Shown here in pieces: positions 11,428 to 63,910 of a stretch of DNA of 64,000 nt. The notes beneath the pieces were generated by a model that was not told where the DNA came from, did not search any database, and was given only the letters and a program-made list of their open reading frames with translations. Position numbers and translations under genes: made by a program. Within the stretch, counting starts at the first letter, position 1. Each line of letters starts with the position of its first letter. The stretch is from Cyanobacteriota bacterium (GTDB lineage Bacteria > Cyanobacteriota > Cyanobacteriia > Cyanobacteriales > Nostocaceae), in the NCBI GenBank assembly GCA_046045965.1, contig JBJOKS010000002.1, positions 167,138-231,137 of the forward strand, given 5' to 3'.

Positions 11428-11437
11428 AATTTTCTCC

Positions 11438-13632: not shown

Positions 13633-13677
13633 TCCCAGTCCCCAGTCAAGGGTCAAGAGTCCCCAGTCAAGGGTCCC
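13633..13677 (+). repeat. Mixed heptamer repeat (CCCCAGT / CAAGGGT)
   Basis: cccagtccccagtcaagggtcaagagtccccagtcaagggtccc after the pcrA stop. Confidence 0.75.
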
Positions 13678-13680
13678 TAT

Positions 13681-16011: not shown

Positions 16012-16134
16012 GGGTATGTGAAAGAGCGATCGCCTGGTATTACATCCACCAATTGTAACGATTGCTTGGGTGAGATGAACTGAACATAATTCAGTATTGA
16101 TATATTCAACCAAATTTTGCTCACCAGATACCTG

Positions 16135-17283
16135 TTATTTGTTGGATTTAAAATATATACCTTCTACAAATTTAACCATCTTGGGGTTATTGGACTGCCA
16201 CCTAATTCTATCAGTACGAATAGTAGCTTGATGGCTTTCAATAGTGTCTGGTGTTAACAACACCCCAAAATTCAAAGGCACAGTTTCCAGTTGGGACTGA
16301 AAAATTCTGTTTAAAATCAAATCTGCAACTCTATACTGGTAATGAGCGCCATCTACATAATTTTTCATTTCATTGGTGACATTTTCCGTATTCACACTCG
16401 TGTAACCAGTAAAATCCCATACTGGGGTAATTTTTACAACTTCACGCTGCCACTGTTCGTATTTTGGCCATAAGCCAGCTATATGTATACCCTCCATCTG
16501 TACAGCGTGTGTTGGTGAAAAAAATACTTTCACATCTATATTTTTTTGCTTGCAAATTTCAAGAATTTTTTGAAAATCATTAAGGCGAGCAGGGGAAAGT
16601 TGGTAGTTTTTATATCGATCTTCTTTCTGAAAATAACTTTTTAAAACTGCTTGGAATTGCAGTAACATTTGTTCAGATTTATTGTTATTTTCACCTTGAA
16701 TATTTGTGAAATCTATTGAGTTTGCATCTTCCGATTTTGATGGTAAATTGGCCGTTAGTGTAGTCCAACTTGATTGGAATGCACTGAAAGAAAAAATAGC
16801 ATTTAAAGCATCCTGCAAAACAAGATATTTTTTTTGTAACCTTTCTGCTACAAAATCTGGAGATGTTTGGACTCCAATACCAAATGAGAAAAAGTCCAAG
16901 CCAATTACGACTTTTTTTAAATCTGGTTGATTAAACAATGCGTGTTGAAAGTACAGCAATTGTTCTTGTGTTCCAGAACCAGGTAAAGCTAAGTTATATA
17001 CTGGTTGACTATTGGCAAAAACTGGATGATTAGTAGATAACCTTAATGCAGTAGATGAGCCTAATAAAATAGTTTTCGGTTTAATGCGAGTTACTTCAAT
17101 TGCTTTTATCAGTCTGGTGTTATTCTTACTAACAGGCTTTTCTTGATTGACACCTTTAATTTTACTAATACTAAATAGTTCATAGGGATCTATCAATAAA
17201 TTGAATAACCCAAAAGTCAATAGACTGGAAGAAACTAGGGAAAAAAAGACTAAATTAAAATGTTTATAGGTTTTGATATTCAT
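16135..17283 (-). CDS. Membrane-anchored SGNH-like protein paired with an MBOAT
   Basis: N-terminal TM followed by IDPY, ILLGSS, and YVDGAHY (DxxH). Confidence 0.62.
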   Translation of the reverse strand: MNIKTYKHFNLVFFSLVSSSLLTFGLFNLLIDPYELFSISKIKGVNQEKPVSKNNTRLIKAIEVTRIKPKTILLGSSTALRLSTNHPVFANSQPVYNLALPGSGTQEQLLYFQHALFNQPDLKKVVIGLDFFSFGIGVQTSPDFVAERLQKKYLVLQDALNAIFSFSAFQSSWTTLTANLPSKSEDANSIDFTNIQGENNNKSEQMLLQFQAVLKSYFQKEDRYKNYQLSPARLNDFQKILEICKQKNIDVKVFFSPTHAVQMEGIHIAGLWPKYEQWQREVVKITPVWDFTGYTSVNTENVTNEMKNYVDGAHYQYRVADLILNRIFQSQLETVPLNFGVLLTPDTIESHQATIRTDRIRWQSNNPKMVKFVEGIYFKSNK

Positions 17284-17289
17284 GCTGAT

Positions 17290-18744
17290 TTAGAACTGGA
17301 AGTAAAGAAATTCAGATATTTGATTAAGTGACAAAAAGCAATATATAGCAATAAATGATACGCCCAAAGTCCACCACAAATTAGGTTTAAATCTATCCAT
17401 AATCTCTTGAGTATTTGGCAATAGGACAACCCATATTATGAGTCCAAAAATAAAAATAAGTGTCTCTTTACCTGGTAAATAAGGATAACTACGCTGAAAT
17501 CTAACGCCAAAGGCCGTCAGCCATTGCCAGCTAGACTGGTATCCTTCTGTTAATACCAAACCCTTCATTCCTGCCATTGTCCGTAATAATTCTACAGCAT
17601 CAGTAATATTTTGAGCGCGAAATAGTACCCAGCCAATGATGACAGCGATAAATGTTATTAACCAAGCAAAGAACTTTGGCAGGGGCTTACCAAATTTACG
17701 CCAACCATGATTAATACAAAGATATAATCCATGTAGTCCACCCCAAGCTATGAAAGTCCAACCAGCACCATGCCATAAACCACCGATTAACATTGTAATG
17801 AAAAGATTGATATAACGTCTTACTTGCCCATGACGATTACCACCTAATGGAATATAAAGATAGTCCCGTAGAAAATTAGAAAGAGTAATATGCCAGCGTC
17901 GCCAAAAATCAATTATTGAAGTTGCTTTATAGGGTGAGTTAAAGTTAATAGGTAGTCGAAGATTAAACATGAAACCTAAGCCAACTACCATATCAGAATA
18001 ACCAGAAAAATCAAAGTATAATTGCAATGTATAACTTAATGCTCCAACCCAAACTTCTAGAAAACTTGCTGTACTAGCATGAGTAAAAACGGGGTTGACA
18101 AAACGAGCAACGTGATCAGCAATAACTAATTTTTTAAACAGCCCAAGTATAAACCATGTGATACCAATGGATATATTTTTATGAGAAAAGAATAAATTTC
18201 TCATTTTCTGAAACTGGGGAATTATGTCAATATGGTTAACAATTGGACCTGAAATTATATAGGGAAAAAATGTAACAAATAAACTATAATCAATAAAATT
18301 ATAATTTTTATTTCTACCACGGTAAACATCTACTAAATATGCAGTTTGAGTAAATGTGTAAAAAGAAATTCCCAAAGGAAAAATAATTGTGGGAATACTC
18401 CAATTTATACTAATTACCTGATCAATAATATTAATGAAAAAGTTAGCATACTTATAATATCCTAATATGACTAAGTTAAACCAAACTCCCAAAACCAGAA
18501 AAATTTTGGCTCTTTTACTACCTAATATTGACTTACTTATTAATTTGCTAAATTGATAATTAATTAAAATAGAGAGTAGTAATAAGGGAAGATAAACAAG
18601 ACTCCAAAAACTATAAAAAACTAAAGAAGCTATCAATAAAAAAAATCGAGATAACTTAGTTAAACGCCATGTATTTATAGCGAAAAACCCTAGTATTGTG
18701 ATTGGCAAAAAACAAAAAATAAATGGGTATGAATTAAATAACAT
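17290..18744 (-). CDS. MBOAT family O-acyltransferase (AlgI-like)
   Basis: MLFNS start, PLGISFYTF, QLYFDFSGYSDM, DFWRRWHITLS, YIPLGGNR, GLWHGAGW and C-terminal FLYFQF. Confidence 0.95.
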   Translation of the reverse strand: MLFNSYPFIFCFLPITILGFFAINTWRLTKLSRFFLLIASLVFYSFWSLVYLPLLLLSILINYQFSKLISKSILGSKRAKIFLVLGVWFNLVILGYYKYANFFINIIDQVISINWSIPTIIFPLGISFYTFTQTAYLVDVYRGRNKNYNFIDYSLFVTFFPYIISGPIVNHIDIIPQFQKMRNLFFSHKNISIGITWFILGLFKKLVIADHVARFVNPVFTHASTASFLEVWVGALSYTLQLYFDFSGYSDMVVGLGFMFNLRLPINFNSPYKATSIIDFWRRWHITLSNFLRDYLYIPLGGNRHGQVRRYINLFITMLIGGLWHGAGWTFIAWGGLHGLYLCINHGWRKFGKPLPKFFAWLITFIAVIIGWVLFRAQNITDAVELLRTMAGMKGLVLTEGYQSSWQWLTAFGVRFQRSYPYLPGKETLIFIFGLIIWVVLLPNTQEIMDRFKPNLWWTLGVSFIAIYCFLSLNQISEFLYFQF

Positions 18745-41254: not shown

Positions 41255-42748
41255 ATGACCTTAAGTAGATTAACCCGTTTTAGGAAAGTCCTATTTGCCT
41301 CAGTTTCTCTCATAGCACTGTCGCCAATACATTCTACTTTGGCAGCATCTGATTTATCTGCCTTATCTGTTACAATCCCATCAACACTAAGCCATCGGCA
41401 GCTTTTAGCACAAGAAACTACTGAAGAACAATCAGATCCTTCTACTTCTGTCAAGAGGGAAAAATCAGGATTTACGTTATATATTTGGCAACCAGGTGGT
41501 ACAATTTCTGAAGTTATCGCCCGTATTTCTATCAAGGGGAAATATGGTGAAAAATATCACAAAGAAAGATTTTTAGGCGATTACAAATATAAAATTAAAC
41601 AAAAAGCCAAATTTGTAAATGGTTTTAAATTGGGCGATCGCATCGTTGTCCGATTGTATGATACAAACAACCGTTTTATAGGCTACACAGAATTTGCTTG
41701 TTTAGCCGGTCACACAGCCGTCAACCTAATTTTATCAGCCAATCCCACTGAAAATCAAGTAGTGCGAGTCTTCTATGGCACAGATGCTAATGAAGATGGT
41801 ATCGTTGACAGAGATAGCACCGCTAATTTCGACTACTTTACAGAACTTAGTAACCAAAAAGTTACCTTCCTCACCAGTTCGGAAAATATCAACATTACTC
41901 AATACCAAGCTGCTGGTTTTGCTAACGTTGCTACTACCAGCGTATATCCTGTATCATTTACTGAAGGTGAATTTGCCTTAGCTGGGAAAACCATGAACAC
42001 AGTTGATGCTAACTTAGCCAAAGCCTTGACTGCGACTCCTGGGAGTTTGGTACAGTTAAGCCAACTGAGCAACAACTCGACATTTCAACTGCACCAGTTG
42101 TTAGGTAAATATCGGGAAGTGGGAGTAGCTAAAAATATCCGAGTTACATTTTCTGATATTCCCAAAGATTACTGGGCTAAAGATTATATCGCCGAATTGG
42201 CAGCAATGGAAATTATTGATGGTTATCCCGATGGTACATTTCGTCCTCATGCCCCAGTCACTCGCGCTCAACTAGCTGCCCTGTTGCAAAAGGTCTTTAT
42301 TAAAAGTAAAGTGCGAAATGCGATCGCTTTTCGAGATGTTCCTCAAGATTATTGGGCTTATGATGCCATCCGCGAAACTTACGAAATGGGTTTTTTCACC
42401 ATTCTTAACAGCAAAAACTTCAACCCCACACAAAAACTTACCCGTCAAGATATTTTAATCACCTTAGCAAAAGGATTGAATTATAAATTTACTGGTTCAA
42501 CAAAAGATATATTATCCATTTATAGCGATGCTTCCAGTATTAGAAGTGAACATCGAGAATTTATTGCCGCACTAACACAAAACGGTGTAATTGTCAACTA
42601 CCCTAATGTAAAATTGCTGAATGGGAAAAAACAGGCTACTAGAGCAGAAGTTAGTGCTTTACTATACAGGGCTATGGTGAGTGCTGGGGAAGTTGCTGAT
42701 TTTGCCTCAAAATATACAGTTAAGCCTGTTATAAAAGGTGATAGGTGA
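41255..42748 (+). CDS. Secreted protein with three C-terminal S-layer homology (SLH) domains
   Basis: Signal peptide; FSDIPKDYWA..GYPDGTFRP..TRAQ, FRDVPQDYWA..TRQD and TRAE. Confidence 0.88.
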   Translation: MTLSRLTRFRKVLFASVSLIALSPIHSTLAASDLSALSVTIPSTLSHRQLLAQETTEEQSDPSTSVKREKSGFTLYIWQPGGTISEVIARISIKGKYGEKYHKERFLGDYKYKIKQKAKFVNGFKLGDRIVVRLYDTNNRFIGYTEFACLAGHTAVNLILSANPTENQVVRVFYGTDANEDGIVDRDSTANFDYFTELSNQKVTFLTSSENINITQYQAAGFANVATTSVYPVSFTEGEFALAGKTMNTVDANLAKALTATPGSLVQLSQLSNNSTFQLHQLLGKYREVGVAKNIRVTFSDIPKDYWAKDYIAELAAMEIIDGYPDGTFRPHAPVTRAQLAALLQKVFIKSKVRNAIAFRDVPQDYWAYDAIRETYEMGFFTILNSKNFNPTQKLTRQDILITLAKGLNYKFTGSTKDILSIYSDASSIRSEHREFIAALTQNGVIVNYPNVKLLNGKKQATRAEVSALLYRAMVSAGEVADFASKYTVKPVIKGDR

Positions 42749-43128
42749 CAGGTGACAGTGAGGGAATAGTGATTAAGTCTCATCATTTTTCTGCAATTTT
42801 ACCAGTTCAAAAGACTGTTTTTAATTGGCAGAAAACAGATTTTATGGCAGTGTTAAAAAAAGCTGCTGATACTGCTGAACTAACCGTAGTAGATGAAGTG
42901 AGTTTTGCATTTCAACCACAGGGAATATCAGCAGTTATTTTATTAGCAGAGTCTCATATAGCATTGCACTTTTGGCCAGAAGAAAGTAAAGTAACAATTG
43001 ATATTCATATCTGTGATTATCAACAAGATAATTTAGCAAAAGCGCAACTTTTAACACGGATACTCACACAAGAAGTTAGTAGTTGTGAATATTTGAATAA
43101 TTGGCATTATTTATCTATTAGTGGTTAG
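42745..43128 (+). CDS. speD: Pyruvoyl-dependent S-adenosylmethionine decarboxylase family proenzyme
   Basis: FQPQGISAVILLAESHIALHFWPE (E-S self-cleavage site) and DIHIC; start may be GTG 42769. Confidence 0.85.
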   Translation: MTGDSEGIVIKSHHFSAILPVQKTVFNWQKTDFMAVLKKAADTAELTVVDEVSFAFQPQGISAVILLAESHIALHFWPEESKVTIDIHICDYQQDNLAKAQLLTRILTQEVSSCEYLNNWHYLSISG

Positions 43129-43267
43129 CTCACTATTCTGCATTTTTGTGGGCTACAATTATTTAATTAATAACGAACCGCAGAGACGCAGAGGACGCAG
43201 AGAAAACTATTAGGTTGGTAATGCTACTCTAAAACTAATTTTTAATTTTTACCCACACCCCTACTGT

Positions 43268-44137
43268 TTAAAAACACCAAGCAATTAAAAAAGAAGCCGC
43301 AATATACGCAAAAGCTTCAATTAAACCTGCACCCACATTAGGTATTTCTTGGTTAACAATTTCATCAGAAATTTTTACTCCAGGAACTAAAATCAAATCT
43401 GCTAACCAACGAATTCCGACTAAAGAAAGCAAGCAAAATAATAGAGTTAAACCATATTGAGTAAAACTAACCAACCAATTTGTAAACTCCGGGTAAAAAG
43501 CTACTCTCACAATATTACCAGTTGCAATTAATAACCCTGCTAAAGCGACACCTGCGGCGGGGTTATTGCGTTTTTCTATTTCCGCAAATACATTATATTT
43601 AGTCACACGGGGATAAAGAGAACTGACTAAAATAAGTACCACTAAACCTATTAACCAACATACCAAAGATACCCACCAACCACCATTTTCACCACCTAAA
43701 GCCGAATTTAAAATTAAGCCATTAGCAATGTGATTTCCTGCTTCTACATTAGCTGCACCCAAATTTCTATCTTGAATAATTTCCCGTTCACAATTAAATT
43801 GACGTAAAATAAATTTATCTCCTACCCATGCACCAGCTAACATAAATAAAATTACTGTTGCACCATAGGTAGCTAAATTAATAATTTTATCTTGCCAATT
43901 AACAGCACTTTGTCCTAAAACCCCACCCAAAGCAATGACAATACCAAAATAATAACCTACTAAAGCGATCGCCACAGCAGGATTATCTTTAACAAACAAT
44001 TCTAAATTCAATTCTAAGCGTGTACGAAATAACTTTTGATAAGCTAATTGTCCTACCCAAAATAAGCCAAAACCTATGATTAATTCTATAATGATAATCC
44101 CTGATTGATTGAGAAAATTCATAATAATTTCATTCAT
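43268..44137 (-). CDS. DUF350 membrane protein (tandem DUF350 units)
   Basis: Repeated ELFVKDNPAVAI / EIIQDRNLGAA / EIEKRNNPAAGV / EIVNQEIPNVGAG motifs between TM hairpins. Confidence 0.85.
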   Translation of the reverse strand: MNEIIMNFLNQSGIIIIELIIGFGLFWVGQLAYQKLFRTRLELNLELFVKDNPAVAIALVGYYFGIVIALGGVLGQSAVNWQDKIINLATYGATVILFMLAGAWVGDKFILRQFNCEREIIQDRNLGAANVEAGNHIANGLILNSALGGENGGWWVSLVCWLIGLVVLILVSSLYPRVTKYNVFAEIEKRNNPAAGVALAGLLIATGNIVRVAFYPEFTNWLVSFTQYGLTLLFCLLSLVGIRWLADLILVPGVKISDEIVNQEIPNVGAGLIEAFAYIAASFLIAWCF

Positions 44138-45197
44138 TTTTACCACCTGATAAATTTTGGAATAAACTAATTAATGTATCTGCTAATTGGTCATAGAAAA
44201 AGTAATCATGAGCGCCAATAGTTTTGATATGTGTACCGCCAAACTGACTTTTAAACTGAGAAAATTTTGTATAACCGTGATTAGTATCACGAGTAAAACC
44301 ATAGAAATCATAAACTTGACAACCGCGAAGTTTTGCCCTTTGGATAGCTTGCCAATGTAAGCCATAATTTGCCATTACTTGTCTATGTAATAAGCTACTA
44401 CCACCATATAAATAAGTTGCAGTCTGACCACAATATACTACTAAAATAGCAGCTAATATTTCTCCATTCCAAGTAGCTAAACCAATTTCTGCCATATTCT
44501 CTTTAAATAAGGTTTGACAGAGATTAATAAAAAATCCATAAGCTTCACCAAAAAACTCTTGACGTTCTACAGTTTCCCAAAACAAATCATAGAATATGGG
44601 GATATTTTGGGAATCATTACTAAATTCAATTTTTACACCATAACGTTGACTCAGACGAATATTGTAACGCCCTTTTGGTTTCATAGATGCGAAAATTTCA
44701 TCTGTATTGGGGCGTAAATCAATTAATAAAGTTTCACAAGGTAATAAGTCAGCAGGTGCGCGAACAAAATCTTTAAAATAATCAGGTTTTTCCTGCGATA
44801 ATGGTTCAATTCGCAGAGCGATCGCACCCTGTTCTCGTGCTATAATCTCCCCTTTCTCTAACAATAACTGCATACCTATTTCTGGATTATTTTCTGGTAA
44901 AATAGGACCTCCAGGAGTAAATAATAAATTGGCTTTATTGGTATGGGGATATAAATAATAAATGCACCCACCCACCAATTCATCATTTAAAAATAATCCA
45001 TAGTGCCAGGTTTTATAACCTTCTAATTCTTTAAAATTAGCCCAAATGGAAGTTTGCATAAAACAACCAAATTGAGAAGATTTAACCAGCAAATCCCAAC
45101 TTGTAATTTCGGAAGTTTTTAATTCTCTAACAGTTAAGGATAAACTGTTGTTAACTGATGAAGTTTGAGAATAATTCTTAATGTTATTAAATTTCAT
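44130..45197 (-). CDS. FemAB/FemX-family (GNAT-fold, aminoacyl-tRNA-dependent) peptidyltransferase
   Basis: FMQTSIWANFK, GGP, KGRYNIR, YLYGGS, YDFYG and QFKSQFGG. Confidence 0.88.
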   Translation of the reverse strand: MKFNNIKNYSQTSSVNNSLSLTVRELKTSEITSWDLLVKSSQFGCFMQTSIWANFKELEGYKTWHYGLFLNDELVGGCIYYLYPHTNKANLLFTPGGPILPENNPEIGMQLLLEKGEIIAREQGAIALRIEPLSQEKPDYFKDFVRAPADLLPCETLLIDLRPNTDEIFASMKPKGRYNIRLSQRYGVKIEFSNDSQNIPIFYDLFWETVERQEFFGEAYGFFINLCQTLFKENMAEIGLATWNGEILAAILVVYCGQTATYLYGGSSLLHRQVMANYGLHWQAIQRAKLRGCQVYDFYGFTRDTNHGYTKFSQFKSQFGGTHIKTIGAHDYFFYDQLADTLISLFQNLSGGKNE

Positions 45198-46642
45198 TGA
45201 TTACTATTCCGCCAACGTTTGATAATGCTATATAACCAATAACCTCCAAGATAAGTTAATACAAAACCTAAACCTTTCCAATCAGAATTACCACCACCGG
45301 AACTACTACTGCTACTACTCCTACCATAAGATGAACCTTTCGCAAATACCGAATCTGGTGCTACTAAATTAGCCATTAACAGCGTTATAGATAACAAAGT
45401 AATAAATTCAACCATTTTGGGATTTAACGTTCCTAAAGGCTGATTAGAGTTAAGTTTATCTGCGAAACTTCTCAATTCCCTAGCAATCTGCGGTGGTAAT
45501 TCCTGCGCTCTAGATAGTAAGGTATTTATTAACTGTTTAAGGTCTATTTCCGATAATAATCCTTGGAGATTATCTAACCAAGATGTTATCATCTTAGGGT
45601 CATGGTAGGGATGGCGTACTGGTACAAATTGATTGATATTTGATAAGTCTTTTTCTGCATCGGGAGCAGCATAAATATTTTCTAACCAAAACTTAGCTAC
45701 AGTTTCTAAATCTAGGGAATTAATATTTTCTATTTCTGCATTTACCTGTTCATCAATATCTAAAAAATCCACATATTCACCGGAGTTTAATGGTAGAGTT
45801 TCTGGTTTCGCTGGATAATTCAAAAGATAATAAAATAACTGTTCATTTTCCAGAGTGTGAATAGTGACTTGATGACGAGATGCTGCTATTGATTCCTCAA
45901 ATATAAAGACTGGCAATAACTTTTCCCGTGTTAAATAATTTAAATTATTTGGGAAGTAAATATTTTCTATTTCCGTCCTCAGAATACCCTGTGATGAACC
46001 CAAAAAGAAACCCCAATTACCATAACCATGTCCCCGAAATGAGGGAATTTCAATTTGTAAGGGTTTAGTGAATAAATTTACTGATAACAATGTTTGATAC
46101 AAACACCAAAAAGCTTGATTATTTCTCGTTGGTGAAACACCATTTACCGCAAGAATTCCAGAGGTAATTAAAATGCGGTTAACTTCTTGAAACCATTGCT
46201 GACTATAAATTTTTGCTTCTTCAGCAGAATTAGGACAAGTGAAATCACAAATCACAACATGATAACAATCATCAGCCAATTCTCTAGCAAATCCAAAAGC
46301 TTCTTGAGTGTAGACATTTACTTTATCATCTTCTAAACTGCCTAAATTATAAGGTTTAAATACCGTGTTAGCTAATTCAATTACATCTGGATTATAGTCT
46401 ACCAAATCAATTTTTTTAACTTGCTCAAAACGGAGTACATCCCTAGCAGCTAAACCATCACCACCCCCACAAATCAAAACCCGTAAATCTGTATCAGGAA
46501 ATCTTTGTATTGCTAAAGCTATCGTAGGAATTACCAGATGTTCATGATAAATTGCTTCATCAGCACTATCAAACTGCAAATCTCCATTGATATAAAAGGC
46601 AATACCATGATCATAGTTTTCAATAAATAAGGAAGTAGACAT
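45194..46642 (-). CDS. Spermidine-synthase-like aminopropyltransferase with a long C-terminal membrane extension
   Basis: YINGDLQFDSADEAIYHEHL, VLICGGGDGLAARDVL, LVDY, ICDFTCP and IPSF..WGF; two C-terminal hydrophobic segments flank a Ser/Gly-rich loop. Confidence 0.85.
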   Translation of the reverse strand: MSTSLFIENYDHGIAFYINGDLQFDSADEAIYHEHLVIPTIALAIQRFPDTDLRVLICGGGDGLAARDVLRFEQVKKIDLVDYNPDVIELANTVFKPYNLGSLEDDKVNVYTQEAFGFARELADDCYHVVICDFTCPNSAEEAKIYSQQWFQEVNRILITSGILAVNGVSPTRNNQAFWCLYQTLLSVNLFTKPLQIEIPSFRGHGYGNWGFFLGSSQGILRTEIENIYFPNNLNYLTREKLLPVFIFEESIAASRHQVTIHTLENEQLFYYLLNYPAKPETLPLNSGEYVDFLDIDEQVNAEIENINSLDLETVAKFWLENIYAAPDAEKDLSNINQFVPVRHPYHDPKMITSWLDNLQGLLSEIDLKQLINTLLSRAQELPPQIARELRSFADKLNSNQPLGTLNPKMVEFITLLSITLLMANLVAPDSVFAKGSSYGRSSSSSSSGGGNSDWKGLGFVLTYLGGYWLYSIIKRWRNSNQ

Positions 46643-46649
46643 AGAAACT

Positions 46650-47294
46650 TTACCCAAATATAATTAATAATATACCAGTTGAGAAAACTATAATTGCCAG
46701 TATTAACTCAGTCATTAAAGGGCTGGTAAAAATTGTCATCTGGCGTTGGGGACCCACACCTTTTTGAATATTGGAAAATTCTTTAGGCTGGACTACTTTA
46801 GTGGAGTAAATATCTAATTTTCGATTAGGAAAAGCTTCTATTGCTAAATTCACAAAATGGTCCTTGTCCCAATAATCCCAAGTAATTCGAGATTTTGTTT
46901 TTCCTTTAGCATCATAACTTCCTTCAGTTTGCGAATCGAAATAATAGGTCTTATAAAAAAGTTTCAATTCTGGATAGGGTGTAGTTAATGCTTGCATTTC
47001 CTGCCATAATCTAGGTACTATATCTTCTTGAGAGTTTGGCAGATATAAATGCACATTTTCCAACAAATTGGAAATATACCAAGTTACAGAATTAAGTTCT
47101 TCCGTGGGGTCATATTCTCGCAACAAGTAATATTCTGACCCACCTGATGATACTAACAACCATTCATCTGTTTGATAACCTTGGGGGTCTTGATAGGTGC
47201 TGTAATCTTTTATATCCCAGTCTACACTAGAATACATGACGCGATCGCCTGGACGCAAGCCATGAAGTTGAGTTTCAATACCAGTTGTATACAT
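46650..47294 (-). CDS. DUF4178-like protein with C-terminal TM
   Basis: LRPGDRV...YQTDEWLL..YYLLRE and WDY..LAIE pattern; first gene of a DUF350/SpeE operon; ATG 47294 likely start. Confidence 0.7.
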   Translation of the reverse strand: MYTTGIETQLHGLRPGDRVMYSSVDWDIKDYSTYQDPQGYQTDEWLLVSSGGSEYYLLREYDPTEELNSVTWYISNLLENVHLYLPNSQEDIVPRLWQEMQALTTPYPELKLFYKTYYFDSQTEGSYDAKGKTKSRITWDYWDKDHFVNLAIEAFPNRKLDIYSTKVVQPKEFSNIQKGVGPQRQMTIFTSPLMTELILAIIVFSTGILLIIFG

Positions 47295-49923: not shown

Positions 49924-52900
49924 ATGTCAAACTTACTCAAAAAACACAACTCAGAAGCCTGGGGATACAGTTTATTAAATTCGACAATTGATAGTTTAAT
50001 TCGCAACTTTGAAGGTCAAGAAACAGTTAAATTATATCCTGATTTCCGAGAAAGAAAAGAACGCGCTCATGAGTTAATTTTTGAATGTGTAGGTAAACAA
50101 CCTTGCCTATTTTATATTCGTCGTCAAGGTACAGGAAAAGAAACAGGAGAAGAAATTTGGGATTTAACAATAGCTACAGATGAAAGTGAATTTAAACTAC
50201 CCAAAAGATTAAAAGAGCTAAATAAAACTTTAGGAATTAGAGCAGCAGTTAAAAAAAATGGAACTGGCGGTTTAAAGATTCTTTCAGTTTATTTATTACA
50301 ACCAGCACGGGGACAAACTGATGCTTATGCTTTACCTTTGTGCTTGCAGTTAGTTCCTAGTCATCATGAACCTATAAATATTTCCACCAAGCTATTAGCA
50401 CAAATAGCTAAAATGCCAATATGCGGTAATCATGTACCAACAGAAGATCAACTACAAGCCTGGAAAGCATTTTTAAAAGTTGAAGAACGCATTGCTAAAG
50501 CCAGACAATTTTGTGCAAATTTCTCCAACTTAAAATATAACACACATAAAAAAGAAATTGCCTTTCAAATTAATATTAACTCAGCTACTCTTGACGGTGA
50601 TGAAGAAAATTATTTAGATGAAGAAAACTTTTGGGAACGGGTAAGAAAGGCGAAAAGTCAAGATATCAAATTTTCTGATTCCATACCTACAGAAAAAAAT
50701 CGCCGCAGTAGTCGTCAAATTGGAACTATTGAAAAAATTGACCAAAAAAATAATATTATCCACATCAGACTTGAACGCGATTTAGTAGAATATATAGCAG
50801 CAGGAAATTATCAACTACCAACAAAAGGATACTTATTTTTTGATGCTGCTGGAGATATCAAACAAATTGAACGCAAAGAAAAAGCCTTAGAACAATTAAG
50901 ACAAGGACGCACCCAAAACCCCTATTTAGGTGACTTCTTATTTGACGCTTCCCAAGCTAGAGCTATTAAAAAAACCGTCAAACTCAAAGCCAAAGACTTG
51001 TTATTATCTGCTGCAAATTCAGGTCAAAAAGCATCTGTAGAAAAGGTACTAGCAGCAGAAGATTTAGTTTTAATTCAAGGACCACCAGGAACAGGTAAAA
51101 CTACCGTAATTGCGGAAATTTGCTATCAAATTGCTTTGCGTGGTGGACGCACATTGATTACTTCTCAAGCGAATTTAGCAGTTGATAACGCCTTGAGTCG
51201 ATTAGTTCACAACCCAGTTATTCGCGCTGTTAGAAAAGGAAAAGCTGAAAAAGTTGGAGAAGAAGGACAAGCATTTTTAGAAGATCAAGTAATTGATAGA
51301 TGGCTAGACAATACTGCTACCGACTGCGAAAATAATCTTGCTCAACGTCGGGAAAATATCTACATTCTCCGACAATTATTAGCTTCATTACAGCAGTTTA
51401 CAGATTATTTAAAATCTGAAGAAGATTTGCATGAGCAACAAAATAAATTGAAAGAAGAGAAAATAAAATTAGAGGATATTTACAAAAAGCAAGAATTAGT
51501 TTACAATGAAGTTTTAGCAAATAAAAATGAAATAGAATTACTCATTAATGGTTTGAAAAATATTCTCAAAAAACCACAAAATATCAATTGGGACGACTCA
51601 GACGTTAAAGAATTTTTACCCCGTCTTCAACCTTATACAGTAGAAAATAAGCGAGTAGAAAATTTCCGGGAAAATGTCCGTCAAGCTATCAAATATACAG
51701 ATGAACTTGGTTTTGTTCGTCCTGCGCGTGGTGCATTTGGTTTAGCTGTTTGGTTGCAAGAAACTGTAGCAAAAGAAATTTCTGAATCTAAAATAGCATT
51801 CAGTTATGCTCATGATGCAATTGAAGCTATGTCAGAATTAGCAACATTAGTAAAGGGTTTTAAACAGAGTTCTACATATTTGCATCAGTTACAAACAGAG
51901 TATCAGCAATTTCTTAATCAGGGAAAAAGTTTACAACCAACAATTCAAATTTGGGAAAACCGGAAACGAGAAATTGATTATATTATTGAAGCAGTTAAAG
52001 AATGGAAAATTACAGCTTATTCCCATCTTTATCAAGTTTTGAAAAATTGTCAACAATCTGATTTACCATTAACAGATAATTTGTTGAATTTACCACTAGG
52101 TTTATTGATGTTTGCTAATAACCTGAAAATACCCATATTACCCAAAAATTATCAAATTCAATTACCAGAATGGAAACTATTAACAAAAGCAATTTCCTAT
52201 GAGATAGAGGGTAAATTTAGTGATAGACGGGGTAAACAGCATAATTTCAGCTATTTTGTGCAGCAAAGTTTTAGTCAAATTCCAATGGTATTAGAAAAGA
52301 GCGATCGCACCAAATGGCAAGAAATTTATCAACAGTTTGAAGATTATCAATTACTCACCTCTAAACAGCGAAAATTGCTAGTTGAAAATACCCAATCTTT
52401 TTTAATTCAACTGCAAAAAAATTACAGCACATCCTATGAATTAAATAACATCGACTCTACTCTAACTCGAATTACTCAAGAATTACTAGATACCATTCTT
52501 GCAAATGCTCGTCAATGCGTTTTCAAATTAAAAACTGAAGCAGAACAACAGCTTAATATTTTACAAAAACAACAAACACAATTACCTCAACTTCCCAAAA
52601 ATGCTATTACCCAAGAACAAATATTAGCAACTCAATCTCAGGTAGAAAAAGCCAGTCAAGATGCTAACTTACAGCTTCAAAAAGTTGTCAATATTTTGGA
52701 AGAATTGAATAAACAACCAAATTTACCTTTAAAATTGCGTAATCTCACACAACAATATTTAGCCACACAATCAAATATTTGGGAACAGCATCAAGAATTT
52801 GCCAAGCAGGTAAATATTTGTGAAAATTCCATTACTCAGCTTGAAACCTTAACTTCCTCATTAGATGCTATTGCTATCTTAGAAATCATTAAAGACTCAT

Positions 52901-54246
52901 TGCAACAGGAGTTAGGAAAACTTAAAAAAACCACAAAAACTTTTTTACAAAAACTGGAAACTTCCCAAAATAAATTAAATCAATTAGAGGAGAAATTAAA
53001 ATCACAGATATCTGATGATTTAATCAAACAAAGAAACTGGTGGGATTTGACTTGGCAAGCAATACCTGATAAATTTAAGCCTAATAACCCAGAAAATGAT
53101 TTATTTAATCTGGAATTTTTGAACACAGTTAAAACCAGGTTTGAAATTTGGCAACAACAACTGCAAAATGAAGAAACTTATCTGCAAAAATATCAAAACT
53201 TTGTCCAAGATTGGATTACAAAAATACGTCAACCATCAGAAAGAGATAGTAACGACTTAAGACAGATTTATTTAGACAATGCTAACGTCGTTGGTATCAC
53301 CTGCGTTCAAGCTGCAAATTACAATTTTTCTGAAGAATTCAAATCTTTTGATGTTGTCATTATTGATGAAGTCAGTAAATGTACTCCACCAGAATTATTA
53401 ATTCCCGCTTTGAAAGGTAAAAAATTAGTTATGGTAGGAGACCATCGACAACTACCACCAATGCTGGATACTAGCACAGTGGAAGAAGTTGCTGCAACAA
53501 TTGGTCATACAAGAGAAGAAATGCAATTTTTAGAAGAATCATTATTTAAGTTTCAATTTGAAGCTGCTGATAATAGTATCAAACAAATGCTCAATACCCA
53601 ATATCGAATGCACCCCAACATTATGGGAGCAATAAATCAATTTTATGATGGTAAATTAGAATGTGGTATTTTAGAACCTGACAACAAACGCGCTCATAAT
53701 TTAGCAGGGGAAATAATTAAACCAGAACATCATCTAACTTGGGTAAAAATGCCCAGAGAAAATGAATTTCAAGAAGAACGTCTAGGAACTTCATTTTTTA
53801 ACATTCCTGAAATTGATGTCATTGAAAAAATATGTCAGCAGTTTGAAAATGTTTGGAGTTCTAAAGTTGCTAATGGTGAACCCAAAAAAGAAATAGCAGT
53901 AATTACATTTTATGGCGCTCAATTGAGAAAAATTGATGAACGTTTACAACCTGAATTTTTCCCTTCACTGCAAATTAGAACCGGGACAGTAGATAGATTT
54001 CAAGGAATGGAAAGACCTGTTGTAATTGTCAGTATGGTGCGGAATAATTATCAAGGAGATGTGGGATTTGCCAAAAAACCAGAACGGGTGAATGTGGCTT
54101 TTTCTCGCGCTCAAGAATTATTAGTAATTGTTGGTTGTCACGATTTATTTACGAGTAAAGCAGGTACAGTTGGTGGTATGTACTCAGAAGTGGCAAATAT
54201 TGTTAATTTTCATGGAGGTTTTATTGATGTTTCCTGCTTCTGTTAA
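49924..54246 (+). CDS. Large Upf1/DNA2-like superfamily 1 helicase (AAA_11/AAA_12) with a long coiled-coil insertion
   Basis: IQGPPGTGKT, SQANLAVDN, IIDEVS, VGDHRQLPP, QYRMHP, TVDRFQGME and RVNVAFSRA. Confidence 0.92.
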   Translation: MSNLLKKHNSEAWGYSLLNSTIDSLIRNFEGQETVKLYPDFRERKERAHELIFECVGKQPCLFYIRRQGTGKETGEEIWDLTIATDESEFKLPKRLKELNKTLGIRAAVKKNGTGGLKILSVYLLQPARGQTDAYALPLCLQLVPSHHEPINISTKLLAQIAKMPICGNHVPTEDQLQAWKAFLKVEERIAKARQFCANFSNLKYNTHKKEIAFQININSATLDGDEENYLDEENFWERVRKAKSQDIKFSDSIPTEKNRRSSRQIGTIEKIDQKNNIIHIRLERDLVEYIAAGNYQLPTKGYLFFDAAGDIKQIERKEKALEQLRQGRTQNPYLGDFLFDASQARAIKKTVKLKAKDLLLSAANSGQKASVEKVLAAEDLVLIQGPPGTGKTTVIAEICYQIALRGGRTLITSQANLAVDNALSRLVHNPVIRAVRKGKAEKVGEEGQAFLEDQVIDRWLDNTATDCENNLAQRRENIYILRQLLASLQQFTDYLKSEEDLHEQQNKLKEEKIKLEDIYKKQELVYNEVLANKNEIELLINGLKNILKKPQNINWDDSDVKEFLPRLQPYTVENKRVENFRENVRQAIKYTDELGFVRPARGAFGLAVWLQETVAKEISESKIAFSYAHDAIEAMSELATLVKGFKQSSTYLHQLQTEYQQFLNQGKSLQPTIQIWENRKREIDYIIEAVKEWKITAYSHLYQVLKNCQQSDLPLTDNLLNLPLGLLMFANNLKIPILPKNYQIQLPEWKLLTKAISYEIEGKFSDRRGKQHNFSYFVQQSFSQIPMVLEKSDRTKWQEIYQQFEDYQLLTSKQRKLLVENTQSFLIQLQKNYSTSYELNNIDSTLTRITQELLDTILANARQCVFKLKTEAEQQLNILQKQQTQLPQLPKNAITQEQILATQSQVEKASQDANLQLQKVVNILEELNKQPNLPLKLRNLTQQYLATQSNIWEQHQEFAKQVNICENSITQLETLTSSLDAIAILEIIKDSLQQELGKLKKTTKTFLQKLETSQNKLNQLEEKLKSQISDDLIKQRNWWDLTWQAIPDKFKPNNPENDLFNLEFLNTVKTRFEIWQQQLQNEETYLQKYQNFVQDWITKIRQPSERDSNDLRQIYLDNANVVGITCVQAANYNFSEEFKSFDVVIIDEVSKCTPPELLIPALKGKKLVMVGDHRQLPPMLDTSTVEEVAATIGHTREEMQFLEESLFKFQFEAADNSIKQMLNTQYRMHPNIMGAINQFYDGKLECGILEPDNKRAHNLAGEIIKPEHHLTWVKMPRENEFQEERLGTSFFNIPEIDVIEKICQQFENVWSSKVANGEPKKEIAVITFYGAQLRKIDERLQPEFFPSLQIRTGTVDRFQGMERPVVIVSMVRNNYQGDVGFAKKPERVNVAFSRAQELLVIVGCHDLFTSKAGTVGGMYSEVANIVNFHGGFIDVSCFC

Positions 54247-55078
54247 TCGACCTATTGATGATCATCTCAAAAATATAGTCACAAAAATTGAAACTGAAAA
54301 TCCTAATTTATCAGTTTTTGCTGCCCGTCAATTTCGCTATAGCTTGCGTCAAAATACGGTAGATTTAACAATTAAAGAACCACGACAATTTAATGTACTG
54401 GAAGAGTTTATAATTCGGGCTGGAATTGAATTTGAATCATCACCAACAGCAGATGAATTAGCATCCATACTGGGACTAGATTCGGTGTTTGTGAAAAGTA
54501 CAATTTCTACTCTTCAGTCCTTACAAACTTTGGCGGTAAAATCAGCAATTACAGTTACTGATGAAGGACGTTTATTTTATGCAAGAGGAACTGTACCGCA
54601 ACCACCTTATACAATCACACTTTATGCGACCACTGATTATTTAAATGAAAAAATTACCTTTCTATCGGAATCGTTAAATGATGTGATAGTCAATTTACCT
54701 GATTTAGCAACTTTTATAAATGTTGACCAAAAAATTAACCAAATTTCTTCTTTAAGCATTGAGGAAGTACAGCAATTGATTCAGGATTCAGGCTTAAAAT
54801 TTCATATACCAGAAGAGGGAAAAATAGTCACTGGTTTTAAAGTCATACCACCAACTAAACCTGTTTGGAAAACTATCTCGCTGTTTGTGATTTTTGATGT
54901 AATAGAAGATAAATTAAATATTCAAATCCGTAGCGGTAAACGAATTTTAGAAACAGCATCAATTAGGGTAAACTCCCTACTTAATGAGGGTAAAATTTCC
55001 TTGCAATCATTATGTGACTTGTCAGATGAAATCATCAATTCTGCACGAGAAGCTATTTTGAAACAAAGAAATTCATAA
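54227..55078 (+). CDS. Hypothetical protein overlapping the helicase stop; probable winged-helix domain
   Basis: ATG 54227 overlaps the helicase end by 20 nt; TADELASILGLDSVFVKSTISTL...ITVTDEGR resembles a wHTH. Confidence 0.65.
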   Translation: MFPASVNRPIDDHLKNIVTKIETENPNLSVFAARQFRYSLRQNTVDLTIKEPRQFNVLEEFIIRAGIEFESSPTADELASILGLDSVFVKSTISTLQSLQTLAVKSAITVTDEGRLFYARGTVPQPPYTITLYATTDYLNEKITFLSESLNDVIVNLPDLATFINVDQKINQISSLSIEEVQQLIQDSGLKFHIPEEGKIVTGFKVIPPTKPVWKTISLFVIFDVIEDKLNIQIRSGKRILETASIRVNSLLNEGKISLQSLCDLSDEIINSAREAILKQRNS

Positions 55079-60546: not shown

Positions 60547-61671
60547 ATGAAAGTTGGTATTGAGGTCTTTAGAGGTAAACTTAGATTAAGATTCCCTAGA
60601 GCTTTGTTTGGTGGAAATCAGAAATACTTATCTTTGAATCTAGCTGACACTGCTGAGAATAAAGTGCTTGCTGAGATGAAAGCAAGACAGATAGAGTTAG
60701 ATATTCTAGCTGGTTATTTTGACCCTACCCTGGCTAAATACAAGCCTCACTATGAATCTGCTAAGAAGGAAAAAACATACACTTTAGTGGATTTATGGTG
60801 TGACTATGTTCAGTTTAAGAGTAATCAAGTAGAACAGTCTACTGTTATAAGAGACTACGCACTAATAGAGAAAAGAATTAAAGCACTACCTACTCACCAC
60901 ATTAAGGATGCAGTGCTAATCAGGAATCATTTACTCAGTAATTATTCTGCTGAAACAGCAAAGCGTACTATTAAACAACTTAATGCTTGCTGTAATTGGG
61001 CTATCACATCTGGGTTGCTAGAAACTAATCCCTTCAAAGACTTAGTTAAAAGCATTAAAACCAAAAGGAAAGATAATACTATTCTTACTTTCAACAGAGA
61101 GGAAATAGCTATTATCATTGATGCTTTTGCTAGTAACAAGTATTGCCCTAAATACTCTCCTCTACCTCACTGTTACTACACCAACTATGTCAGACTTTTA
61201 TTTCTCACTGGATGCAGACCTGAAGAAGCTGTAGCCTTGAAATGGAAACATATTAGCTCAACACACATCACTTTTGCTGAAGCTGTACCTTCTGATGTCA
61301 GGGTAAGAAAAGACACAAAAACTCACCAAATTAGACTATTCCCTATCAATAATCAATTGAGAGAACTTTTGAATGATATTGGGTATAAAGAGGCTGAGAA
61401 ATTACTTTTATATAATCGCAATGGTAGAGAGCTAAATACTCATAATTTTCTCAATAGAGTATGGAAACCAGTGTTAACTAATTTAGTCAATGATAAGTTG
61501 ATTAGATATTATTTGCCTCAATATAGTTGCCGTCACACCTTTATCACTCTATGTCTGGAATCTGGTATTAGTGTTAAACAAGTTGCTGATATGGTGGGTA
61601 ATTCTCCTGAAGTAATCTACAAACATTATTCAGGAGTAATCAAACAACTTGAAGTTCCAGAAATATTCTAA
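60547..61671 (+). CDS. Tyrosine recombinase/integrase with N-terminal arm-binding domain
   Basis: GKLRLRF..QKYLSLNL..IELDI..FDPTLAKY arm domain; TGCRPEE, KDTKT, YSCRHTF and GNSPEVIYKHY. Confidence 0.95.
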   Translation: MKVGIEVFRGKLRLRFPRALFGGNQKYLSLNLADTAENKVLAEMKARQIELDILAGYFDPTLAKYKPHYESAKKEKTYTLVDLWCDYVQFKSNQVEQSTVIRDYALIEKRIKALPTHHIKDAVLIRNHLLSNYSAETAKRTIKQLNACCNWAITSGLLETNPFKDLVKSIKTKRKDNTILTFNREEIAIIIDAFASNKYCPKYSPLPHCYYTNYVRLLFLTGCRPEEAVALKWKHISSTHITFAEAVPSDVRVRKDTKTHQIRLFPINNQLRELLNDIGYKEAEKLLLYNRNGRELNTHNFLNRVWKPVLTNLVNDKLIRYYLPQYSCRHTFITLCLESGISVKQVADMVGNSPEVIYKHYSGVIKQLEVPEIF

Positions 61672-61681
61672 AAATAGATTA

Positions 61682-61939
61682 TTACTGGGTTATAGACTGC
61701 TTATTTTTCTTTTTCTCTTTTGCTATCTCTTTCTCAACTTTCTTAATTAGCCTCTGAATTTCTGAATCAAACTTTTCTTGCATTTTAGGTAAGACTGTGA
61801 GTATGGCTTCTAAAACTTCTACCTTTTTATCTTCTGACTCCTCTGCAAATCTTTTTTGCATTGCAGTATTCCAATCATTTATCAAGCCTGGTAAAGATGT
61901 GAAGACTATGTTAATTTCATTTTTGATTGGTAGTGGCAT
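61682..61939 (-). CDS. Small hypothetical helical protein
   Basis: 85-aa ORF with ATG and upstream TATAAT-like sequence, convergent on the integrase. Confidence 0.55.
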   Translation of the reverse strand: MPLPIKNEINIVFTSLPGLINDWNTAMQKRFAEESEDKKVEVLEAILTVLPKMQEKFDSEIQRLIKKVEKEIAKEKKKNKQSITQ

Positions 61940-61983
61940 CTTAAGTACCTGTGTAATAGTATAAATTTATTATATAAAAAATG

Positions 61984-62028
61984 AACCTGATGAGTTATCT
62001 AATCTTGTAGTTACTCATCAGGTTTTTT
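61984..62028. terminator. Hairpin, possible terminator
   Basis: AACCTGATGAGT ... ACTCATCAGGTT followed by TTTT. Confidence 0.55.
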
Positions 62029-62192
62029 GATATGGAGGAGGCTGAGGTTAGTTAGCTAATTGTCAAAAGCCTAACCTCTTGTAGTAAATCCTGATTTTTG
62101 CTTTACACTCTAAAATTTTACTAGACAGTTAACTTTTGTTGTAATCAGCTCTAGCTTTGTGAATATTGATAAGGATGCTATTGGTTGTTTAT

Positions 62193-62516
62193 CTATAACG
62201 GGTCATCTAAACCTAAACTTATTTCAGATTGAATAAACTCCCTTAATTTTTTAGGGTCAAAAAAATTAACAGAATTGGCATCAGAATTTAAAAACGATAC
62301 CCCTTCAGATAAACCTATATCTTGAATAAGATCCCTGATTTCAATGTTTATATTTGAAATAGTCGCTTTAAGTTTTCCATTATCTTTAGATAATTGAATG
62401 TTGTCAGATAACAGAATAACTTTAGTTAAAAGTACAGAAGAGTAAAATAAATTATTAATTGCTTCCTTCTTTTTGTCTTGCATAATCCACACCTGATCAA
62501 TTAATACCCCAAACAA
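62193..62516 (-). CDS. Hypothetical protein (start may be ATG 62483)
   Basis: ORF only; no motif recognised. Confidence 0.4.
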   Translation of the reverse strand: MFGVLIDQVWIMQDKKKEAINNLFYSSVLLTKVILLSDNIQLSKDNGKLKATISNINIEIRDLIQDIGLSEGVSFLNSDANSVNFFDPKKLREFIQSEISLGLDDPL

Positions 62517-62815
62517 TAAAACATTATAAAAAAGCCAAGTGTGATAGTAGTCACTGATTTTATGTGATGATTTATGGTAGCTACTTGGCTGAACTACCCC
62601 CCTAAAACATTCTTGCAGTATAAAGGTAAGAAGATTTACCCTAAACTTAAATTACCTATAACTTGAGATTAGCTAAACTTGGTTTACTGTTACCATTAGT
62701 AATTAATTAACTAAATATTAACTAATGCTGCACAACCCTTTCTCTTTATATAAATAAATAATTTAGGTTGTGCAGTCTGCTAGAAAGGGGGTTGGGTTAG
62801 CTGCCCTTACCCCAA

Positions 62816-63910
62816 CTAAAATGGTAACTCTACTAACTCCTCTTGTTTACTGTATCTAGCTTCTCTAGCAGCCAAAATAGAGTTCATTATATCAACTGAA
62901 GAAGAGTCAATATAATACTTTCTGACTCTGATTTTCTCATCTGTATCTTTAGTTGGATAAACCCCTAGAGAACCCATAGCAACCATCACATCCCCTCTAC
63001 GCACAGTCACCTGCTTATCTTTAGTAGAAAGTCCTAGTACACTTAATACTGATTGAATAAACTGAAATGGTTTATCTTCTACATTCTTAGGTACAGATAA
63101 GTTTAAAAGCTCTTTAAACTCAATAGCATGACTGGTAAACCAACTATGGTTAGCATGAGGAGCATTAATCTCAGACTCAGAATAGAAAGCTGATAACTCT
63201 TCACCTTTTAGTAATGAACCCTCATAGTTAACTCTCTTTAAAAACTCTCTAATCAAGTTTACTGTCTTAACTCTGTACTTGCGGTCACTAGGAGCTTTAG
63301 TTCTAACATCTAGTTCATCTTGTTGAGCCAAATCTTCTAAGTCTCTATTCAGTAACCCTTGTAAGTAAACTGCTTTAAACCACTTAGATTCATTCTTCAC
63401 TACTTCAGGTAAATACTCAGTTAAGCCTCCAATTAACTCCAGCAACTTATGTTTCTTAAGAGAGTTAGCTTCTTGTACAGACAGTACATCAGGGTCAGTA
63501 TCTAATAAAAACCAATTTTCTGGAGTAAGGTCAGGAGCATTTATGATTGCTTGATGTTTAGCTTGCTTATTTTTTCTTCTAACAATCTTTGTAGCTTCTT
63601 TAACTATCTCTAATTGCTTAATCTCTGATTCAGTAGGTTTATGTGTTACAACTTTACCTTCTCTAGCAGCAGCCTCAAGAAAGGAACTATGTAAATCATT
63701 AAGAGATTTATTCTGTAGAGCTTGTAGCTGGCAGAACATAGTTATATACACACTGTCTCTAACTTTTGAAGTTCCAGTAGCTATATCAAAGTCCCAAGCC
63801 CAAACATCTCCTCCTCTTGCTGCTCTTAACTCAGAGTCAACACTATTCATCCAACCTGTACCAAAGGCTATTCTCAGTAAACCAAAAAGTTTTTCTCCGA
63901 AGAGCGATCG
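62816..63910 (-). pseudogene. C-terminal part of a probable cyanobacterial plasmid-type replication protein (CyRepA1-like)
   Basis: AIINAPDLT..LKKHKL and VLSVLGL...RVRKYYID resemble Rep C-termini as I recall them; the frame is open up to a TAG at 63911-63913; no primase or helicase motifs. Confidence 0.5.

Follow-up and report, generated by a model that had tools for sequence, protein, structure and literature searches.

The window analysed here is a 64,000-nt stretch of genome assembly GCA_046045965.1, from a cyanobacterium of the family Nostocaceae, and all coordinates are positions in it. It carries a cassette of four tightly packed minus-strand genes and a converging speD-like gene, whose closest homologues carry the names of Nostocalean cyanobacteria. 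At its core is a gene pair for a SpeE-like aminopropyltransferase and a Fem-type transferase, here called FemAB. The five genes are as follows:

46650..47294, minus strand: DUF4178 protein, 214 aa, ATG at 47294 (PF13785, E 7e-14)
45194..46642, minus strand: SpeE-like aminopropyltransferase, 482 aa, ATG at 46642 (PF01564, E 7e-22)
44130..45197, minus strand: FemX-like double-GNAT transferase (FemAB), 355 aa, without coiled coil (PF02388, E 8e-37)
43268..44137, minus strand: tandem DUF350 (YjfL-type) membrane protein, 289 aa, ATG at 44137 (PF03994, E 4e-45, two stretches)
42769..43128, plus strand: SpeD-like pyruvoyl decarboxylase, convergent (PF02675, E 7e-20)

The DUF4178 and SpeE-like genes are 7 nt apart (46643-46649), the SpeE-like and FemAB genes overlap by 4 nt (ATGA, 45194-45197), and FemAB overlaps DUF350 by 8 nt (44130-44137). 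Open reading frame (ORF) calls and Pfam matches bear out a first-pass annotation, made by a model from the sequence letters, in all five genes, their strands, this spacing and the facing speD. By hydropathy scan the DUF4178 protein has a single hydrophobic helix at its C-terminus (196-214); the DUF350 protein has at least seven. The longest speD frame opens at 42745, and GTG at 42769 is the likelier start, because relatives read 119 aa and a purine-rich run lies upstream. The gene converges on the four-gene run and is not co-transcribed with it. Its product is likely the source of decarboxylated S-adenosylmethionine (dcSAM): the pyruvoyl self-cleavage site E-S-H is present in 32/32 SpeD proteins of cassette loci. 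SpeD homologues with new functions exist (PMC13625781, partial text). The cassette proteins fall short of the NCBIfam equivalog cut-offs, with 91 against 250 bits for speE (TIGR00417), 210 against 472 for PRK03612, 50 against 500 for FemX and 71.2 against 75.65 for SAM_DCase (TIGR03330). Each family is represented by one gene in this genome, which is 92% complete (single matches for PF01564, PF02675 and PF02388, and likewise for DUF350). A promoter scan returned 32 sites against 22.6 +/- 4.5 in shuffles, none of which stood out. Two metatranscriptome runs gave short low-depth contigs on the cassette; these show neither strand nor level and were not used.

Conservation of the SpeE-like/FemAB pair

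A scan of species genomes confirmed 427 FemAB relatives, and the counts over 80 loci given here refer to the best 80 of these; kin are not independent, and the locus counts are descriptive. All four relatives holding a FemAB orthologue have the same four-gene order and a convergent speD. A SpeE-like gene is present in 75/80 loci and lies directly upstream of FemAB in 74, which, together with the order recurring in the four relatives, argues that the arrangement is not due to chance; FemAB is conserved in the operon across genomes, as the model of the first-pass annotation required. In three of the six loci without an adjacent SpeE-like gene the sequence ends at a contig edge, in one the genes are rearranged, and in the last two they are unlinked. 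Both genomes with unlinked genes carry DUF4178 and a SpeE-like gene of the tailed form described below (tail-type) elsewhere. One of these copies is split over reading frames (L266:5023-6482 in genome G282, FemAB unlinked), possibly by decay or an assembly error.

Profile matches to DUF4178, DUF350 and SpeD occur in 61, 51 and 32 of the 80 loci; when only the 55 loci that span 14 kb or more are considered, the counts are 45, 37 and 27. The SpeE-like/FemAB pair reaches Geomonas, Herpetosiphon, Armatimonadota, Rokubacteria and Obscuribacterales. Of 251 genomes sampled evenly across the phylum, 10 have the SpeE tail and these 10 also have a FemAB orthologue, adjacent each time; two further genomes have weak Fem matches only. 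The cassette is accessory; its conserved core is the SpeE-like/FemAB pair, to which DUF4178, DUF350 and SpeD are more loosely attached. SpeD, which the first-pass annotation had counted into the system, is linked in only those 32 loci.

Two neighbours were considered as further parts and rejected: the SLH gene abutting speD is present in only 5/80 loci, all from near kin, and a DUF1611 gene before speD is found in six loci and is local. In the window the gene for the SLH-domain protein (41255-42748, plus strand) runs with its stop into the longest speD frame. A 35-bp dispersed repeat (43171-43205; 55 genome matches of at least 25 nt) separates the facing ends of speD and DUF350 and overlaps a minus-strand terminator-like hairpin. 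L056:4508-5608 (minus strand) and four other Pseudanabaena loci contain a 366-aa gene divergent from DUF4178, with no Pfam match at 1e-6.

The two enzymes and their changed acceptor sites

The SpeE-like protein consists of an N-terminally shortened catalytic domain, a helical linker, a hydrophobic helix, a motif containing Lys435, a Gly/Ser-rich stretch and a final helix. The conserved extension of about 200 residues past the catalytic domain was absent from the first-pass description. Its parts are the following:

45824..46642, minus strand: catalytic domain, residues ~1-273; Q23, Y32, H33, GGGDG (D62), D82 and the catalytic D133 kept; C136 at the position of the putrescine-anchoring Asp
45443..45715, minus strand: helical linker, residues ~310-400, family-specific; predicted main FemAB docking surface
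45335..45415, minus strand: hydrophobic helix 410-428 and motif N-x3-P-D-x-[AV]-[FY]-[AG]-K-G; residues 413-433 predicted FemAB contacts
45338..45340, minus strand: codon of Lys435, the proposed acceptor; invariant in aligned homologues

DUF350/DUF4178 operons with a spermidine-synthase-like enzyme fused to seven transmembrane helices (7TM-SpeE) were reportedly described by Li et al. 2019. A metagenome scan gave 9 tail-type loci and 71 sister loci with this known 7TM-fused SpeE, as the best 80 of 438. We compared 88 divergent tail-type domains, for which a GGGDG-type motif was required, with the 71 sister domains. The fold of the SpeE-like protein matches SpeE structures (model pTM, the predicted template-modelling score, 0.81), and the residues on the dcSAM side and in catalysis are kept in both groups, with the catalytic Asp (D133) present in 87/88 tail-type domains. 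In human SpdS, where the roles of Asp173 and Asp176 have been described, Asp176 binds the far amine of putrescine (PMC13619349, partial text). This distal Asp is found in 0/88 tail-type domains versus 71/71 sisters, its position being occupied by Val (46), Phe (19), Tyr (10) or others (13, one of them Glu). The T/S-x-Y-Q strand is likewise present in 1/88 versus 67/71. The N-terminal beta domain is incomplete, since most alignments to solved SpeE structures begin at residue 35-82 of the solved chain and at residue 5-13 of the window protein, and the N-terminal 7TM domain is lacking, with GGGDG beginning at residue 51-77 in 84/88.

The simplest alternative, that SpeD and SpeE make plain spermidine next to an unrelated FemAB, would agree with their being the sole PF02675 and PF01564 matches in the genome. 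We regard it as very improbable, and with it the free-spermidine role that the first-pass annotation had named as fatal to its model: the distal Asp and the N-terminal strand are missing, the TIGR00417 score is far below its cut-off, co-occurrence with FemAB is strict even in the unlinked cases, and the two proteins are predicted to form a complex (see below). The genome also has a DHS-like gene, and the Anabaena DHS-like gene makes homospermidine (PMC13625781, partial text); the cell can therefore probably cover its ordinary demand for polyamines without the cassette.

A search of 1.84 billion proteins with a profile of the linker and motif gave 154 clusters, from which 150 representatives sharing <50% identity were considered. 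The motif pattern, with its last position left free, matched 130/150, and Lys is present in 130/130. Among the other 20, 11 have the Lys with the N or D changed, six end short of the site and three leave the profile earlier, apparently by a frameshift; thus every one of the 141 divergent representatives long enough to include the site has Lys435. This lysine is also present in 143/143 alignment rows, where each of the protein's 16 remaining lysines is kept in 7 to 131 rows. The stretch that follows is Gly/Ser-rich (Gly 28% vs 6%). Cyanobacterial tails end shortly after it and other forms extend for 200-500 residues; no stand-alone tail that could not be a fragment was seen among the representatives, viewed without genomic context. 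The last helix of the window protein is below the hydropathy threshold, which makes a second membrane anchor uncertain; in 6/12 short-tailed representatives it is above. The helix before Lys435 resembles a signal sequence, with Arg or Lys at -23 in 96/130 and small residues at -3 and -1, the positions at which signal peptidase requires them. Elsewhere in the genome, 0/19 similar signal-peptide-like sites are followed by Lys, a sample too small to weigh. Sister loci have a separate membrane peptide of 50-75 residues ending in Gly-Lys, His-Lys or Ala-Lys; by a fixed rule, such a Lys-ended peptide occurs in 26/46 sister and 1/66 tail-type loci.

In some distant SpeE-like forms (L088:5443-7947, L087:5201-7960 and L097:5164-7968) the Gly-rich stretch is followed by a domain of 200-500 residues that has a recurring Y/F-G-T motif and a coiled-coil-like end; an Atlas search with the Herpetosiphon version of this long C-terminal domain gave no usable match. 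In four Calothrix/Stigonema-like loci (L036-L038 and L050) the motif has R in place of P, the Lys is followed by a stretch rich in Asn, speD is co-oriented and the locus has no DUF350.

The FemAB model is confident (pLDDT, the predicted local distance difference test, 93). Its best Foldseek matches are FemX and FemA (template-modelling score, TM, 0.74-0.81), followed by the aminoacyl-tRNA-dependent peptide synthases Sbb17 and Sba18. Residue equivalences were taken from an alignment to Weissella viridescens FemX, whose Lys36, Tyr256 and Lys305 have counterparts in FemAB. The basic residues K175 and R177, conserved in 80/80, lie on what we take to be the tRNA-binding helix. K316, equated by motif with Lys305, is present in 79/80, the remaining protein being truncated, and Lys305 has a catalytic role in FemX (PMC12945691, partial text). 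At the Lys36 position (K56), 68 proteins have Lys, nine have Arg and three have a gap. In FemX, Lys36 and Arg211 hold the phosphates and D-Ala residues of the precursor (PMC2655667 and PMC8280954, partial texts). The Arg211 position is changed:

44544..44546, minus strand: codon of Glu218, a charge reversal in the acceptor cleft at the equivalent of FemX Arg211

Glu occupies this position in 80/80 loci and 119/119 proteins versus 0/54 other Fem proteins, and the Tyr215 position (F222) is Phe in 76/80. The controls came from the phyla of Herpetosiphon and an armatimonad (81/101 and 54/121 genomes matched, 30 loci used per search); these 54 proteins have Arg (29), His (23), Gln (1) or Tyr (1) at the Arg211 position and keep Tyr215 in 47/54. 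Seven cassette Fem proteins from the same two phyla all have Glu and all lie beside a tail-type SpeE, and none of the 54 others lies near one. A quick tree sets the 19 cassette Fem rows apart from the rest by a branch whose SH-aLRT (Shimodaira-Hasegawa-like approximate likelihood ratio test) support is 100; judged by these sequences, cassette FemAB is a separate, cassette-specific clade.

The acceptor might still belong to the envelope: FemAB would then acylate a membrane lipid, lipid II or a UDP-MurNAc-peptide, whether or not this had first been aminopropylated. FemX and FemA are the nearest folds, the K36, Y256 and K305 equivalents are kept, and DUF350 and DUF4178 link the cassette to the membrane. 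This appears improbable to us, because the precursor-holding Arg211 (PMC2655667, partial text) and Tyr215 are replaced as described, Herpetosiphon has a second, His-type Fem protein elsewhere, no mur, penicillin-binding protein or lipid gene recurs in the loci, and only 10 of the 251 phylum genomes carry the cassette. The doubt already voiced in the first-pass annotation about peptidoglycan is thus reinforced by the invariant Glu. That annotation had allowed a lipid, peptidoglycan or protein acceptor; the lysine of the SpeE-like tail now provides a candidate for the last of these, while peptidoglycan becomes a poor one. A protein lysine is likely a better candidate for the FemAB acceptor than the cell wall.

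Predicted complex and proposed modification of Lys435

SpeE-like residues 1-446 and FemAB residues 18-352 were folded together. The interface score ipSAE was 0.76 (0.75, 0.78 and 0.76 in the individual runs) versus 0.00 for the best of three controls; the ipSAE mark applied is reached by 116/157 solved complexes and 2/215 mismatched pairs, a calibration that is only rough for the custom alignments used in this fold. At least 67% of contacts were in common between runs, and the pLDDT of the partner was at least 87. The surest contacts are those that the SpeE linker (370-382) and the helix at 413-424 make with the C-terminal helix of FemAB (335-345). Further SpeE residues at the interface are 427-433, 2-21 and 138-140, the last two near its own active-site loop. 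On FemAB, the interface comprises 54-60, 145-151 and 216-222, which are residues lining the FemX acceptor cleft, and also 331-350. One FemAB residue of this predicted interface, A339, is conserved as Ala in 19/19 cassette proteins, and Tyr, His, Met or Phe occupies its position in 51/54 others. As a prediction, the model supports binding between the SpeE-like protein and FemAB, and the residues just before Lys435 are predicted to sit in the FemAB acceptor cleft. No solved SpeE-Fem complex was among the structure and fold matches returned, and we know of none.

Because a tail with an invariant lysine is fused to the SpeE-like enzyme and FemAB is predicted to sit on that tail, the pair likely modifies Lys435 in two steps. 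SpeD would supply dcSAM, and the SpeE domain would move an aminopropyl group onto the epsilon-amine of Lys435; a lysine is a one-amine acceptor, which fits the loss of the second Asp. FemAB would then take an amino acid from aminoacyl-tRNA and couple it to the terminal amine so formed, and Glu218 would suit a cationic arm where the Arg of FemX serves an anionic one. The combination of aminopropylation and tRNA-dependent aminoacylation proposed in the first-pass annotation is hence retained as the best reading, and we give Lys435, modified in this way by the SpeE-like/FemAB pair, about an even chance.

In an alternative reading the tail only docks or gates, and a diffusible amine (agmatine, homospermidine or an amino acid) passes through the complex, where it is aminopropylated and aminoacylated to a small aminoacyl-polyamine that DUF350 handles at the membrane. 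FemAB is predicted on the N-terminal strands and gatekeeping loop of SpeE (2-21 and 138-140), small amines are known substrates of Fem-fold enzymes in natural-product biosynthesis (PMC12945691, partial text), with Sbb17 and Sba18 among the fold matches, and the DHS-like gene is a likely source of homospermidine (PMC13625781, partial text). This alternative leaves unexplained a lysine more constant than its neighbours and followed by a Gly/Ser-rich stretch, the predicted tail contacts on acceptor-cleft residues of FemAB, and the distal-amine Asp missing in 88/88, and we consider it unlikely.

The order of the two proposed steps may be reversed. FemAB could act on Lys435 first and SpeE then aminopropylate the alpha-amine of the added amino acid, or Lys435 could be a covalent carrier from which the product is released later. 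FemX directly acylates the epsilon-amine of a peptide lysine, as its NCBIfam name states; the predicted pose places the motif in the FemAB site rather than that of SpeE, and an alpha-amine acceptor likewise needs no distal Asp. We hold these routes to be rather unlikely, as Glu218 would fit a cationic secondary amine already on the acceptor, and no hydrolase or release enzyme recurs in the 80 loci.

In a more speculative extension of aminopropylation followed by aminoacylation, the hydrophobic helix would later act as an export signal and be cut at [AV]-x-[AG] before Lys435. The modified lysine would then head a Gly/Ser-rich peptide that DUF350 and DUF4178 handle at the membrane; export and cleavage after modification are possible from the signal-like features of the helix. 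The whole scheme, in which N-epsilon-(aminoacyl-aminopropyl)-lysine is a new modification made on the enzyme's own fused peptide with a Fem-type transferase, and a Gly-rich product is displayed or released at the membrane, has in our view somewhat less than an even chance.

Several points weigh against this interpretation, besides the rough calibration of the complex score. Lys435 is two residues beyond the last confident contact and is itself unplaced, SpeE residues 432-456 have pLDDT <50, and the interface list gives no residue-level pairing of 427-433 with Glu218. The invariant lysine may have a structural or catalytic role. In the sisters the distal Asp is retained even though a Lys-ended peptide is encoded next to the enzyme; loss of the Asp alone therefore does not imply a lysine acceptor, and FemAB by alignment keeps the precursor-binding Lys36 of FemX as K56. 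If helix 410-428 spans the membrane, Lys435 lies outside, away from tRNA and dcSAM, and modification must precede export; export moreover conflicts with a helix packed on FemAB unless the two states follow one another. A self-modifying enzyme with one turnover is costly, and SpeD is unlinked in 48/80 loci. The two-step activity is deduced from sequence comparison and a predicted complex.

Related operons and biological meaning

The place of FemAB in the operon was compared by tblastn in 89 tail-type and 71 sister loci. FemAB occurs in 86/89 tail-type and 0/71 sister loci, and an amine oxidase in 0/89 and 40/71, lying directly downstream in 29 of the 46 sisters with enough sequence. These counts indicate that FemAB replaces the oxidase, not a ligase. 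The first-pass annotation had put FemAB in the slot of an ATP-grasp ligase, and this did not hold: queries with E. coli YjfC, YjfM, YjfJ and YjfK found no match in either group, and no YjfC-like ligase was found in the 160 loci. A Pfam scan of 93 long unlabelled same-strand sister ORFs from the 71 loci, restricted to ORFs of at least 250 aa not overlapping core genes, found no GSP_synth, one RimK and one D-Ala-D-Ala ligase. PF03738 was not found in this 92% complete genome. As to the mutual exclusion of FemAB and ATP-grasp genes that had been suggested as a check, GSP_synth occurs in 19/251 genomes and in 0/10 cassette genomes against about 0.8 expected, a sample too small to judge exclusion at the genome level; in the six genomes with both GSP_synth and DUF350 the genes are on different contigs. 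Of the two partners named in the first-pass annotation for DUF350/DUF4178/SpeE neighbourhoods, the oxidase is found in the sister loci and a YjfC-like ATP-grasp ligase in neither group. Ravi et al. (PMC11237479; bioRxiv 10.1101/2020.09.24.301986; partial text) also place ATP-grasp in another operon group than SpeE/DUF4178. The available part of their main text does not mention FemAB, which the supplementary tables may list.

The cassette shares with the 7TM-SpeE operons (Ravi et al., partial text) DUF350, DUF4178, an S-adenosylmethionine decarboxylase, a close SpeE-like domain with the same catalytic residues, and a membrane-linked Gly-rich peptide with a lysine. It differs in that its SpeE lacks the 7TM domain and the distal Asp, its Lys peptide is fused with the Lys before the Gly-rich stretch whereas the Lys of the sisters ends the chain, and FemAB stands where sisters have the oxidase; PspA was found in 0/89 tail-type loci, and no Band-7 cluster recurs. 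The E. coli yjfIJKLMC and ygiBC operons, in which YjfC and YgiC are annotated as peptide-spermidine ligases (Pederick et al. 2023, via the review PMC11762307, partial text), also combine a DUF350 gene with an enzyme that forms amides and with a peptide whose tail is rich in Gly and Ser (YjfM), and the product of yjfIJKLMC may similarly be a peptide with a polyamine arm. They use ATP-grasp chemistry on free spermidine without an aminopropyltransferase, and E. coli queries found the GspS-like ligase and the DUF1190 protein in 0/89 cassette loci. FemAB has in common with FemX, FemA and MurM (W. viridescens FemX, S. aureus FemX/FemA) the double-GNAT fold, the catalytic Lys305, a basic tRNA-side helix, Lys36 and Tyr256; it differs by Arg211 to Glu, Tyr215 to Phe, its separate clade and a cassette-specific C-terminal helix predicted on the SpeE linker. 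The natural-product transferases VlmA, DhpH/K, PacB, Orf11 and Sbb17/Sba18 similarly use a Fem fold on a non-wall amine acceptor, but in small-molecule or carrier-bound pathways, and the available part of the review covering them (PMC12945691) mentions neither aminopropyl groups nor cyanobacteria.

The plan of an enzyme fused to its own substrate is also that of the borosins, ribosomally synthesized and post-translationally modified peptides in which a transferase of a SAM-derived group is joined by a helical linker to its own peptide substrate and N-methylates the backbone; their fold is unrelated, and no homology to them was found, none having been looked for. On the features compared, the cassette belongs to none of the SpeE, peptidoglycan Fem, 7TM-SpeE and ATP-grasp groups. 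No published description of it was found among the papers listed for DUF350 or DUF4178, for spermidine synthase with FemAB or for related topics, in a search that covered few subscription journals.

Elsewhere in the window, 6668-18744 (minus strand) encodes an AMP-binding ligase, an acyl-CoA dehydrogenase and two MBOAT acyltransferases, each MBOAT gene beside an unannotated ORF; the group is split by a UvrD helicase gene and may be an envelope acylation cluster. A 1440-aa AAA_11/AAA_12 helicase with a long insert is followed by an overlapping 316-aa ORF without Pfam match (49924-55078, plus strand), and a phage-integrase-family gene and a 344-aa ORF without Pfam match lie at 60547-63850.

The cassette is a variant of a known, unexplained kind of DUF350 operon, with a testable new mechanism. 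SpeE-like enzymes in DUF350 operons occur in thousands of bacteria, and the physiological peptide of YjfC and YgiC is also unsettled (PMC11762307, partial text); the variant described here has a soluble catalytic end with the acceptor apparently in the same chain. If the proposal is true, aminopropylation would be extended to lysines of proteins, a chemistry related to that of hypusine, and a Fem enzyme would have a protein side chain as its target in place of the cell wall. In that case a membrane peptide with a polyamine arm at its tip would be the common product of the ATP-grasp, oxidase and Fem forms of DUF350 operons, each reaching it by a parallel route.

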